Source: Pseudomonas phage Arefeen1
Sequence record: OR472559.1
DNA: 46,021 bases
Strand: one strand, 5' to 3'
The translations under genes and the position numbers were made by a program. Each line of letters starts with the position of its first letter. Position 1 is the first letter of the stretch. The notes under the pieces were generated by a model. The model ran no database searches and was not told where the DNA came from. It was given only the letters and a program-made list of their open reading frames with translations. This document shows, one piece after another, positions 25,705 through 25,799 of the stretch.

Positions 25705-25799
25705 TAACCTTCTTAGTAAGTAAGTCAAAAGGAAGAAGGAATCTTAAGAGCCTATAGGTCTATTATACTACATTTTGGATACTTTGTCAAGTACCTTTT
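25705..25799. repeat. 95-bp element, copy A (about 97% identical to 40550-40644), carrying a minus-strand consensus promoter
   Basis: Read by eye: about 95 bp shared with only 2-3 differences. Confidence 0.85.
25762..25790 (-). promoter_or_regulatory. sigma70 consensus promoter TTGACA-17-TATAAT driving 22480..25647 and downstream genes
   Basis: RC TTGACA at about 25785-25790, RC TATAAT at about 25762-25767; leader hairpin GGCUCUUAAGAU...AUCUUAAGAGCC. Confidence 0.7.

Follow-up and report, generated by a model that had tools for sequence, protein, structure and literature searches.

Layout of the late arm and its consensus promoters

The analysed window, the 46,021 nucleotides of Pseudomonas phage Arefeen1 (OR472559.1), is a circularly permuted genome of a Bruynoghevirus (LUZ24/PaP3-like), and its late strand carries two copies of a promoter cassette (Table 1). 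Copy B lies ~300 bp inward of the place where relatives have their terminal repeat, and is followed by no open reading frame; 196 bp further on begins a tRNA promoter that serves four tRNA genes (40044-40372) plus late genes. Copy A lies between the stop of a 509-aa virion-protein gene and a 1055-aa gene, the product of which is annotated in relatives as a particle internal protein or as a structural protein with transglycosylase.

Table 1. Features of the late arm and related promoters, in window coordinates
Feature	Position	Strand	Details
Copy A cassette	25662..25799	-	Upstream AAAAGGTAC, promoter, leader, shared TTCCAGCAA as its end; homologous to LUZ24 promoter feature 30312-30347(-)
Copy A promoter	25762..25790	-	-35 TTGACA 25785-25790, 17-nt spacer, -10 TATAAT 25762-25767
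Copy A predicted TSS	25755	-	A, 7 nt past the -10 (predicted)
Copy A leader hairpin (predicted)	25676..25755	-	15-bp outer stem, 7-bp inner stem; CTTAAG in both outer arms
1055-aa internal virion protein gene	22480-25647	-	RBS GAAGGTGA 25651-25658, ATG 25645-25647
Copy B cassette	40495..40644	-	Head of late strand
Copy B promoter	40607..40635	-	-35 at 40630-40635, -10 at 40607-40612; predicted TSS 40600
Three 11-bp units of copy B	40513..40546	-	ACCTTAAGGTT / ATCTTAAGATA / GTCTTAAGAAC; CTTAAG at 40539, 40528, 40517
Third perfect consensus promoter (tRNA promoter)	40411..40439	- (late strand)	Extended -10; LUZ24 P016, TSS mapped
Early-strand consensus promoter and conserved leader	383..449	+	LUZ24 P006, TSS mapped; CTTAAG spans TSS; repeat-pair partner of 13594..13660
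Early/middle-strand consensus promoter and conserved leader	13594..13660	+	LUZ24 P010, TSS mapped; repeat-pair partner of 383..449
Intrinsic terminator after major capsid gene	33332..33349	-	Between copy B and copy A; LUZ24 T023 and annotated LUZ24 terminator
Terminator at end of late arm	21178..21199	-	Downstream limit of copy A transcription unit; LUZ24 T020

The preliminary description of this DNA had placed TTGACA-17-TATAAT on the minus strand of each copy, and both elements are exact, matching the sigma70 hexamers at 12 of 12 positions with a 17-nt spacer. Perfect TTGACA-N17-TATAAT elements occur five times in the window against 0.02 expected, a count that none of 100 shuffled sequences reached. 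The start sites of copies A and B were placed by analogy with P006 and P016 of LUZ24, whose mapped starts are both 6-7 nt past the -10. A -10-like TAnnnT hexamer (TAAGGT, TAAGAT or TATTAT) is found within about +15 at all five promoters; counted from these predicted starts, TAAGAT would span +10 to +15 of both cassette copies, and the three remaining promoters have TAAGGT or TATTAT. Consensus promoters of the phages Bjorn and L030 have TAnnnT hexamers too (TAGAGT, TAGAAT, TAGTAT), though the sequences differ.

LUZ24 depends wholly on host RNA polymerase (RNAP), and the phage studied here encodes no RNA polymerase; reading the consensus sigma70 promoters on the structural strand as host-RNAP-driven thus agrees with the published LUZ24 view. 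The LUZ24 promoter trap (Ceyssens et al. 2008) reportedly yielded seven sigma70 promoters, and the GenBank record of LUZ24 has sigma70 promoter features at 30312-30347(-) and 45080-45115(-). Because both promoters are annotated there, from the published trap, the promoters and host-RNAP late transcription were already known, and the novelty that had been implied for them was overstated.

A duplicated cassette shared by LUZ24-type phages

Compared as minus strands, positions 25705-25799 and 40550-40644 are the same at 92 of 95 positions (96.8%), in line with the ~97% identity first claimed for the two copies, and a repeat finder independently paired 25682-25799 with 40527-40644 at 91%. The leader sequence that had been called conserved, CCUUUUGACUUACUUACUAAGAAGG, occurs in both copies. 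The module is longer than the 95 bp originally given: similarity extends, with a 12-nt indel, to a common TTCCAGCAA (25662-25670; 40495-40503), and the repeated unit therefore spans ~140-150 bp between ends common to both copies, AAAA(A/G)GTAC and TTCCAGCAA.

The cassette is not peculiar to the window and was found in about 90 database phages. The LUZ24 sigma70 promoters (Ceyssens et al. 2008) are the same element, with 98% identity at homologous positions, the same gene context and the same consensus hexamers, and the promoters are also annotated in phiIBB-PAA2, Ka1, U47, Epa2 and TL. Bjorn and L030, which belong to other genera, have no intergenic cassette at the copy A junction; each has instead a promoter inside the upstream gene, ~250 nt ahead of the homologous gene, which is a perfect consensus in L030 and matches 10 of 12 positions in Bjorn. 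LUZ24-type annotations and the literature consulted, the 2008 trap paper set apart, treat these elements as promoters only, and the shared leader, the hairpin and the CTTAAG repeats are undescribed in them.

Predicted folding of the two leaders

In the predicted fold of the copy A leader, AUAGGCUCUUAAGAU (25741-25755) pairs with AUCUUAAGAGCCUAU (25676-25690), and inside this outer stem CCUUCUU (25733-25739) pairs with AAGAAGG (25708-25714) over 7 bp. A 12-bp hairpin had been proposed here, and both of its arms (GGCUCUUAAGAU / AUCUUAAGAGCC) are present, but the stem is really 15 bp long and so starts at the predicted first transcribed base. The fold has an energy of -28.2 kcal/mol (z = -4.8), which none of 200 shuffled sequences equalled, and the copy A leader of Or1 scores z = -7.8. 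Two architectures can be told apart: copy A of the window/LUZ24 type has the 15 bp and the 7-bp inner stem over a 1-nt gap, and copy A of the Or1/PaP3/PhiCHU type has a ~30-bp duplex with one bulge. A stem-loop likewise opens the leaders predicted for the tRNA promoter (z = -4.1) and for P383 (z = -2.8).

Numbered from the predicted start, nucleotides 1-15 are fully paired in all nine distinct copy A variants, and the inner leader is wholly different between clades. Within the outer stem, pair 7 switches between U:A and A:U from one clade to the other, and pairs 4 and 15 become G:U and U:G, which are paired in the sense RNA and would be mismatched in the antisense strand. Since only two leader types exist, covariation statistics stay thin, the signal consisting of one compensatory and two wobble events across two clades. 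Pattern scans of IMG/VR and metagenomes for further leader diversity returned essentially known isolates and chance matches.

The hairpin is well supported for copy A only. The equivalents that had been proposed in copy B, the pair UCUUAAGAU and the palindrome TATCTTAAGATA, are indeed present, but the leader folds about as well as shuffled sequence (z = -1.0 and -1.6) and is weakly structured. In its inner stem, copy B of the window has a change with no compensating partner, and in copy B variants pairing mostly begins at nt 2-4, with one alternative fold (Or1); the 5' arm (40586-40597) is the pairing partner of the last 11-bp unit. With copy B not significantly structured and its inner-stem change uncompensated, any RNA function may apply to copy A only.

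Searched with Rfam 15 at gathering scores, the whole window gave three tRNA genes only, and a permissive search of both leaders gave best scores of 13-23 bits against gathering scores of 39-90, with no family matched. We also considered the leader as a small RNA with a phage target; the reverse complement of its inner loop was found nowhere else in the window. A reading of the copy A hairpin as an intrinsic terminator was not supported, the consensus terminator scan making no call. Where an intrinsic terminator is a compact G+C-rich hairpin that runs straight into a U tract, this hairpin is branched and 74-76 nt long, with an interrupted U-rich tail; after its stem comes UAUUCUCUUU, which the Or1 type replaces by UUAUUUUCUAUU. 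A computed terminator score, a crude measure since it also misses the terminator that closes the late arm, was -41 for the window hairpin, -19 for that of Or1 and +21 for the capsid terminator.

CTTAAG repeats and their match to a host regulator's box

The CTTAAG signal of the preliminary description proved real and stronger than it had been made out to be. The hexamer occurs 25 times in the window against 10 expected, and ten of these sites fall in the 631 nt (1.4% of the genome) that immediately follow the five consensus promoters (P = 6.5e-13), in the leaders of all five, non-homologous ones included. In the stem arms CTTAAG is invariant while the flanking bases vary.

In copy B the three 11-bp units, at exact 11-bp spacing, make up two overlapping perfect TTAAG-N6-TTAAG boxes (40517-40544). 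To judge by sequence, the CTTAAG repeats of the leaders match the binding site of a host regulator, because TTAAG-N6-TTAAG is the box of BqsR/CarR, a host response regulator of the OmpR family (Kreamer et al. 2015, PMC4358008; PMC13522522). In that work, a perfect repeat placed in unrelated sequence is enough to give a gel shift with BqsR, the exact tandem consensus is found in only five PAO1 promoter regions, the box overlaps the -35 of activated host genes, and BqsRS responds to Fe2+/Ca2+. At least one perfect box lies in a late leader of each of the window, LUZ24, Or1 and PhiCHU, and no further perfect box lies outside the late leaders in these four genomes. Or1-type copies A and B have one box each; window copy A has none, carrying CCTAAG-N6-CTTAAG with a 12-bp period instead. 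The boxes of copy B are at +57 to +84, ~113-140 bp upstream of the start of the tRNA promoter, and so do not lie over the -35, unlike those of activated host genes. PmrA recognises a very similar repeat, its boxes in both enterobacteria and Pseudomonas resembling that of BqsR.

Among 30 LUZ24 early, middle or unassigned proteins, Pfam detected no phage DNA-binding or antiterminator domain, the only matches being DUF7195, DUF7020 and a dNTP diphosphohydrolase domain. A literature search for CTTAAG as a phage motif returned cloning sites only. We found no link between this phage group and PhiPA1019 Gp53, an AmrZ-like phage transcription factor, and dropped as coincidence, its spacing being judged wrong, a resemblance of the early-strand leaders to the T4 MotA box (GTTGCTTTA); we know of no MotA homologue. 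The LUZ24 nick consensus TACT/RTGMC has no match in the cassette.

Published transcription data

The lacZ trap that yielded these promoters used cloned genome fragments, so the promoters drove a reporter outside the infection context. ONT-cappable-seq of LUZ24-infected cells confirmed the tRNA promoter (P016) and both early-strand consensus promoters, but reported no TSS at copy A or copy B, although samples taken late, at 25 and 35 min, had gone into the pool; nor was a TTS reported near the hairpin. Measured against the refuting outcomes named at the outset, the published data thus cut both ways: the promoters are active in the trap, but no TSS was mapped at either copy in infected cells, which leaves their use in infection a putative one. 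Chloramphenicol and a DNA-polymerase inhibitor each block the PaP3 late genes (ORF1-21), which occupy the same arm.

These late genes' need for protein synthesis and DNA replication, together with the missing start sites, makes some modulation of late expression plausible, as had been suggested at the outset; the support is indirect, and the 30 LUZ24 proteins yielded no phage candidate for the CTTAAG-binding factor then suggested. The missing start sites may also be technical, through a base-paired 5' end, the loss of reads <80 nt that the authors of the LUZ24 study describe, and the difficulty of capturing long transcripts. Base pairing or cleavage of the 5' end would account for the failure to detect these two start sites when those of other consensus promoters were found.

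A proposed head promoter, internal booster and 5' stem-loop

We propose, with a probability of about one half, that the two copies act as a head-of-operon promoter and an internal booster, and that the leader stem-loop protects the 5' end of the transcript or directs its processing. Copy B, at the right genome end, would head a late operon of ~19 kb together with the tRNA promoter downstream of it. Copy A would be a second copy that entered the junction of the last tail/virion gene with the gene for the 1055-aa internal protein and serves there as a booster for the three distal late genes past the strong post-capsid terminator; the position of that terminator between the two copies is the likely reason why an internal booster is useful. 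Host sigma70 RNA polymerase would start ~7 nt past the -10, and as the first 15 nt of the copy A RNA pair with nt 66-80, the mRNA would open with a blunt, branched stem-loop. The role of this structure is most likely post-transcriptional, in that it could shield the 5' triphosphate from 5'-end-dependent decay (RppH/RNase E); alternatively or additionally, it might be a double-stranded processing site for RNase III. In either role it would set how stable the internal virion protein mRNA is and where its 5' end lies.

The cassette sequence alone does not explain the delay of late expression, nor does the model account for the requirement of PaP3 late genes for protein synthesis and DNA replication. 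Since a hairpin needs no palindromic core, the fact that CTTAAG is invariant in both arms and recurs at all five consensus promoters hints at an additional sequence-specific constraint that falls outside the stem-loop model.

Alternative explanations

The rival that survives best, and which we still regard as unlikely, is that only the promoter matters: the cassette would be a recombination joint, its leader passively carried along by duplication, gene conversion and recombination, with palindromes that arise and decay by slippage and an incidental hairpin. Much of the variation fits this account. CTTAAG units differ in number, a 45-nt internal duplication is present in one isolate, the inner leader has been replaced completely between clades, and PaP3 and Delta are mosaics that combine both cassette types, one copy each. 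Directly next to the cassette lies a recombination breakpoint (window versus LUZ24, 84.9% upstream, 98% in and after the cassette), and the module has diverged about as much as its coding flanks. A passive leader nevertheless leaves unaccounted for an outer stem that is kept at 15 of 15 pairs in all copy A variants despite the turnover of the interior, with its compensatory pair and sense-only wobbles, a fold far better than that of shuffled sequence, and the CTTAAG enrichment at five promoters that include non-homologous ones.

Xenogeneic silencing, which we consider rather improbable, would relate the late delay to base composition. Host MvaT, an H-NS-like protein, would coat the cassettes, which rank among the most AT-rich parts of a genome itself AT-rich relative to its host, on entry and keep constitutive promoters off until MvaT is inactivated by the early protein Mip (LUZ24 gp4) and diluted through replication, and the leader would matter through its composition and bendability. 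GC content is 33-37% over 40325-40699 against 52.7% in the genome and 66.6% in the host, Or1-type leaders are more AT-rich still, with many TpA steps, and LUZ24 Mip is published to bind MvaT and stop its DNA binding; silencing would also be consistent with the PaP3 inhibitor data and with the lack of infection start sites at both copies. Yet the tRNA promoter 196 bp away is as AT-rich and is active in infected cells (LUZ24 P016), and no TSS appeared at the copies even though 25 and 35 min samples, by which time Mip should have acted, were in the pool. The MvaT gel shift, moreover, used a 150-bp P. aeruginosa fragment rather than phage DNA, and silencing leaves the covariation of the copy A stem unexplained.

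It is also improbable, in our estimate, that the leaders work mainly as operators at the DNA level, the CTTAAG units binding a modulating protein for which a host OmpR-family regulator (BqsR/CarR; PmrA) is the candidate. From a site downstream of the start, such a protein would repress or adjust late transcription in response to the Fe2+/Ca2+/Mg2+ state of the host, or replicating phage DNA would titrate it. The clustering of CTTAAG behind the five promoters, the invariance of the arm hexamers, the phased perfect boxes of copy B, the confinement of such boxes to late leaders in four genomes, and the rarity and sufficiency of the exact repeat in BqsR binding all speak for an operator. On the other side, the box is absent from window copy A, PSA16 copy B retains one site out of three, and unit number ranges from 2 to 3 or more with decaying middle units, a pattern that looks like slippage among palindromes; elsewhere in the window, the remaining three consensus promoters have single half-sites only. 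The placement at +57 to +84 departs from that of host boxes over the -35, and Pfam gave no phage protein to bind the units among the 30 LUZ24 proteins. Fe2+ and Ca2+, which BqsRS senses, are not obviously supplied in standard broth, so neither the PaP3 delay nor the missing LUZ24 start sites would be obviously explained. The more specific claim, that the 11-bp-phased units of the late leaders are functional sites for BqsR/CarR or PmrA, we consider very unlikely. If it held, a strictly virulent phage would couple transcription of its structural genes to host Fe2+/Ca2+/Mg2+ envelope-stress signalling, or titrate the regulator, and phased CTTAAG arrays, which many unrelated viral contigs contain, would represent the same strategy.

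Least probable, and very doubtful, is elongation control of the lambda PR' kind, in which a constitutive promoter, a sigma70 pause at TAAGAT (+10 to +15) and attenuation at the hairpin with its pyrimidine/U-rich tail would yield a short RNA until RNAP was made resistant to terminators by an early or middle phage protein or, as with HK022 put, by the leader RNA, late expression thereby coming to depend on protein synthesis: the TAnnnT hexamers of all five promoters and of Bjorn and L030, the tracts UAUUCUCUUU or UUAUUUUCUAUU after the copy A stem, the chloramphenicol sensitivity of PaP3 late genes, a product of at most ~85 nt that would sit at or below the cappable-seq detection limit, and a promoter heading a 19-kb operon with an internal terminator are all compatible with it, but the consensus scan does not call the hairpin, its crude terminator score is negative, copy B lacks a U-rich tail and significant structure, Pfam found no Q-like or antiterminator domain in the 30 LUZ24 proteins, no Rfam family matched, and no LUZ24 TTS was reported near the hairpin.

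Relation to known systems and significance

Stabilising stem-loops at the 5' terminus are known from the E. coli ompA 5' UTR and from T7 class III / phi10 transcripts. The cassette resembles these in joining a strong promoter to a stable stem-loop 0-3 nt from the predicted 5' end and in being reused before highly expressed late genes; its stem is much longer (15 to about 30 bp), branched and built from CTTAAG palindromes, and a stabiliser role is putative. Processing sites for RNase III are found in T7 early mRNA and in the lambda N leader, which likewise present long imperfect double-stranded RNA in a leader or intergenic region of phage mRNA, and cleavage of this type would leave a processed 5' end invisible to TSS mapping. 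An RNase III site takes some two helical turns (20 bp or more) of largely unbroken duplex; the predicted continuous helix of the LUZ24 type is 15 bp, with a 7-bp inner stem in addition, and only the Or1/PaP3 type reaches ~30 bp.

Late control in lambda, at PR'-qut-tR', combines a sigma70-dependent promoter-proximal pause with the Q antiterminator, and HK022 has two put RNAs per genome. A strong constitutive sigma70 late promoter, a -10-like hexamer, a structured leader and presence in two copies recall these systems. Unlike them, the cassette goes with no Q-like protein found and no convincing terminator just downstream, has a copy B that is not significantly structured, and shows no sequence or Rfam similarity to them. 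With respect to the BqsR/CarR box, the likeness is one of exact sequence, two boxes overlapping in copy B and one in each Or1-type copy; the boxes here are predicted sites, lie downstream of the start rather than over the -35, and are absent from some copies. The PeSL promoter/stem-loop cassettes of T4-type phages, reportedly described by Arbiol and co-workers in 2010, are also short repeated units of a sigma70 promoter and a stem-loop at gene boundaries and mosaic junctions. The order in our cassette is promoter then stem-loop, as opposed to terminator stem-loop then promoter in PeSL, and there are only two copies, on the late strand.

The promoters are of textbook strength and already catalogued, so that their rediscovery adds little. 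Promoters that are positive in a trap and have no mapped start in infection, next to neighbours that do, nonetheless mark a gap in the LUZ24 transcription map, for which RNA processing, a capping artefact of a paired 5' end, or repression are candidates. Bruynogheviruses are widely used therapy candidates, so an understanding of their late-gene control is of practical value. The BqsR-type boxes, if functional, would make these phages a rare case of a virulent phage that wires late expression to a host two-component system. As a compact, conserved 5' stem-loop, the copy A leader could serve as a stabilising part in Pseudomonas synthetic biology.

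The duplicated promoter cassette on the late strand

The two copies of the promoter module, copy A (25705-25799) and copy B (40550-40644), match at 92 of 95 positions, and on the minus strand each has a perfect TTGACA-N17-TATAAT, a site of which the window holds five against 0.02 expected. The leader and hairpin arms quoted in the preliminary description were also found. It had given the module a length of 95 bp; those intervals are indeed repeated, but the similarity runs past their end over a 12-nt indel as far as a common TTCCAGCAA (25662-25670 and 40495-40503), so that the repeated unit is ~140–150 bp.

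Relatives carry two types of leader, a LUZ24 type and an Or1/PhiCHU type. In all copies the promoter is followed by AGA(C/T)CTATAGGC(T/A)CTTAAGAT, an interior that varies by type (LUZ24-type leaders have a CCUUCUU...AAGAAGG hairpin there, Or1/PhiCHU-type leaders an AU-rich segment), one to three CTTAAG-centred units of 11–12 nt, a stretch rich in pyrimidines, and finally TTCCAGCAA. Isolates differ in how many CTTAAG units they have, with middle units decayed to CCTAAG or CTTAGG, and the last unit is intact in every copy. PaP3 and Delta are mosaics with one copy of each leader type. A mosaic junction adjoins the copy A cassette at ~25800–26200 (3′ end of the 509-aa gene): the window and LUZ24 are 84.9% identical over the 400 bp upstream and 98% over the cassette and 400 bp downstream. 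The copy B leader of phage vB_PaeP_1430 contains a 45-nt internal tandem duplication, and the region is slippage-prone.

Genome organization and a conserved promoter position

A repeat search found bases 1–127 of the window identical to its last 127 (45895-46021), and the window shares up to 99% identity with over 90 podophages that infect Pseudomonas aeruginosa and belong to the genus Bruynoghevirus, among them LUZ24, PaP3, and phiIBB-PAA2; it is therefore a complete, circularly permuted Bruynoghevirus genome. The exact 127-bp terminal duplication resembles a circular-assembly overlap and not the phage’s true terminal repeat, which is ~184 bp in relatives and maps near 40940–41120. Between copy B and that position lies a perfect 18-nt direct repeat, GGTTCTATAGGTATACCC (40693-40710 and 40771-40788, 78 bp apart, with similar adjoining flanks), which could serve as a signal for packaging or replication.

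A promoter at the head of the operon with an internal booster fits the placement of terminators after the capsid gene and at the end of the arm. Phage Bjorn and an IMG/VR contig (L030), members of more distant genera with 53–54% protein identity, have no intergenic cassette ahead of the homologous gene; a consensus promoter, perfect in L030 and 10/12 in Bjorn, lies instead within the upstream coding sequence, ~250 nt before that gene. The need for a promoter before this gene is therefore conserved, and Bruynoghevirus fills it with a duplicate of the cassette from the right end.

Gene arms, terminators, annotated promoters, and predicted BqsR/CarR boxes
Feature	Genome	Coordinates	Strand	Remark
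Early and middle genes	Window	~41100 across window end to 21166	+	
Four tRNA genes	Window	40044-40372	-	
Structural genes	Window	~40640 down to 21210	-	
Strong terminator after capsid gene	Window	33332-33349		Between copies B and A; LUZ24 T023
Terminator closing late arm	Window	21178-21199		LUZ24 T020
Copy A promoter	LUZ24	30312-30347	-	Annotated sigma70; upstream of gp50
Copy B promoter	LUZ24	45080-45115	-	Annotated sigma70
tRNA promoter	LUZ24	44882-44917	-	Annotated sigma70
Perfect box match, late leader	Window	40517-40544		
Perfect box match, late leader	LUZ24	44997-45024		
Perfect box match, late leaders	Bruynoghevirus L004	402-418 and 15111-15179		
Perfect box match, late leaders	Bruynoghevirus L005	30263-30332 and 45025-45041		

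Published promoters and transcripts

Host-RNAP-driven late promoters, as proposed in the preliminary description, agree with the published view of LUZ24. Seven sigma70 promoters are annotated in the reference record of LUZ24. They came from a promoter trap that placed random pieces of the genome ahead of lacZ, and its authors conclude that LUZ24 relies on the host RNA polymerase throughout infection. Several relatives label the same sites “identical to consensus promoter”. These promoters and host-driven late transcription were therefore already known: the earlier observation is confirmed and its interpretation partly supported. New here are the conserved hairpin of copy A, the CTTAAG motif shared by every consensus-promoter leader, and the predicted exact BqsR-type boxes, all of them cheap to test.

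ONT-cappable-seq of LUZ24-infected cells pooled from 5–35 min gave 16 transcription start sites (TSSs); of the seven trap promoters it confirmed four, and it added P010. Starts were mapped 6–7 nt after the -10 element for P006 (window 383), P010 (window 13594), and P016 (the tRNA promoter), which are the window’s three perfect-consensus promoters other than copies A and B. Neither copy A nor copy B has a TSS in the same listing, or a termination site beside it, and the cassette leader is not one of the two ncRNA candidates of LUZ24. The authors of the data set caution that the method loses reads shorter than ~80 nt and captures long transcripts with difficulty. An 11/12 consensus promoter at 24323-24351(+), antisense within the 1055-aa gene and directed at copy A, corresponds to LUZ24 P014 (TSS 28915+, antisense transcription unit TU019).

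PaP3 ORF1-21, genes of the same arm, are blocked by chloramphenicol and by a DNA-polymerase inhibitor, so the late arm behaves as truly late although its promoters, as cloned fragments, drive a reporter outside infection. This contrast is the real puzzle behind the finding.

Structure of the leader RNA and proposed mechanism

With transcription assumed to start at the A 7 nt downstream of the -10 element, the window’s copy A leader folds into a branched hairpin with its first 15 nt all paired (-28.2 kcal/mol, z = -4.8); the hairpin previously described is thus present, with a stem of 15 bp instead of 12 that includes the expected start base. In Or1 copy A the helix is nearly continuous for ~30 bp (-31 kcal/mol, z = -7.8). 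All nine distinct copy A variants keep 15/15 pairs. Comparison of the two clades shows A:U in place of U:A at pair 7, G:U in place of G:C at pair 4, and U:G in place of U:A at pair 15, the wobbles at 4 and 15 pairing in the sense RNA only. The compensatory pair and sense-only wobbles, few as these independent events are, favor a putative constraint at the RNA level. The copy B leader folds no more stably than shuffled sequence (z = -1.0 and -1.6), and in the window its inner stem has an uncompensated change. A predicted stem-loop also begins the leaders of the tRNA promoter (z = -4.1) and of the promoter at 383 (z = -2.8). An Rfam search of the window and both leaders returned no family matching the cassette leader.

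We propose that the cassette combines a promoter for host RNAP with a leader, that copy B and the tRNA promoter would head the late operon, and that copy A would re-initiate transcription for three distal genes, its leader forming a 5′-terminal stem-loop that protects or processes the mRNA 5′ end. Such a paired or cleaved end would account for starts missed by cap-based mapping and hence for the lack of listed TSSs at copies A and B. We assign this mechanism as a whole a probability of about 0.5; confidence is high in a duplicated promoter cassette in a booster position and modest in the possible stabilizing or processing role of the stem-loop.

A leader without function of its own is unlikely. 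MvaT silencing relieved by Mip (LUZ24 gp4), which would be the source of the delay, is quite unlikely.

CTTAAG units and predicted regulator boxes

The window contains 25 CTTAAG sites against 10 expected, and 10 of the 25 fall within the 631 nt that directly follow the five consensus promoters, a span amounting to 1.4% of the genome (binomial P = 6.5 × 10−13; 0.2 expected by local composition), so the motif marks the leaders of all five, beyond the duplicated pair. On the early/middle strand, a second duplicated promoter-leader pair, 383-449(+) and 13594-13660(+), is 83% identical over 52 nt; each member has a perfect consensus promoter and a palindrome, ACCTTAAGGT, spanning the start site, and they correspond to LUZ24 P006 and P010, whose TSSs are mapped.

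In copy B, three CTTAAG units at exact 11-bp spacing (40517, 40528, 40539) form two perfect matches to the box TTAAG-N6-TTAAG of BqsR/CarR, an OmpR-family response regulator of P. aeruginosa. On its own, the TTAAG-N6-TTAAG repeat is enough to give a BqsR gel shift, and the exact tandem consensus occurs in only five PAO1 promoter regions (Kreamer et al. 2015, PMC4358008; PMC13522522). Perfect boxes in the window, LUZ24, Or1, and PhiCHU are confined to late-promoter leaders, with at least one in each genome. These matches would suit a DNA-level operator, including one read by host BqsR or PmrA; however, copy A of the window has no such box, one isolate lacks two of the three sites, and the boxes lie downstream of the start and not over the -35 element, making an operator decidedly unlikely.

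Each CTTAAG(A/G)T also yields a candidate -10-like hexamer, TAAG(A/G)T, in the initial transcribed region, where such a hexamer is a sigma-dependent pause signal in lambdoid late promoters. Lambda-like pausing, attenuation, and antitermination, which these hexamers might suggest, is very unlikely, as the hairpin does not score as an intrinsic terminator and a Pfam search of 30 LUZ24 proteins found no Q-like or DNA-binding domain.

LUZ24 gp38 (20907-21410), named “endolysin; inhibits RNA polymerase” in RefSeq, has as its sole Pfam match the dATP/dGTP diphosphohydrolase N-terminal domain (PF18909, E = 2.9e-27), and the annotation looks wrong. Bjorn has zero CTTAAG in its whole genome against 7.3 expected, whereas Bruynogheviruses have 23–25 against ~10, which suggests different selective pressures, such as host restriction. 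Among unrelated viral contigs in IMG/VR (L033-L095, L104-L157), helically phased arrays of at least three CTTAAG are common: 65 loci have an 11-bp period and 54 a 10-bp period, versus 8 loci at 11 bp for the same-composition palindrome GAATTC. TTAA-N7-TTAA is also the CtrA-type response-regulator repeat. Long tandem arrays account for many of these loci, and some lie at contig ends.
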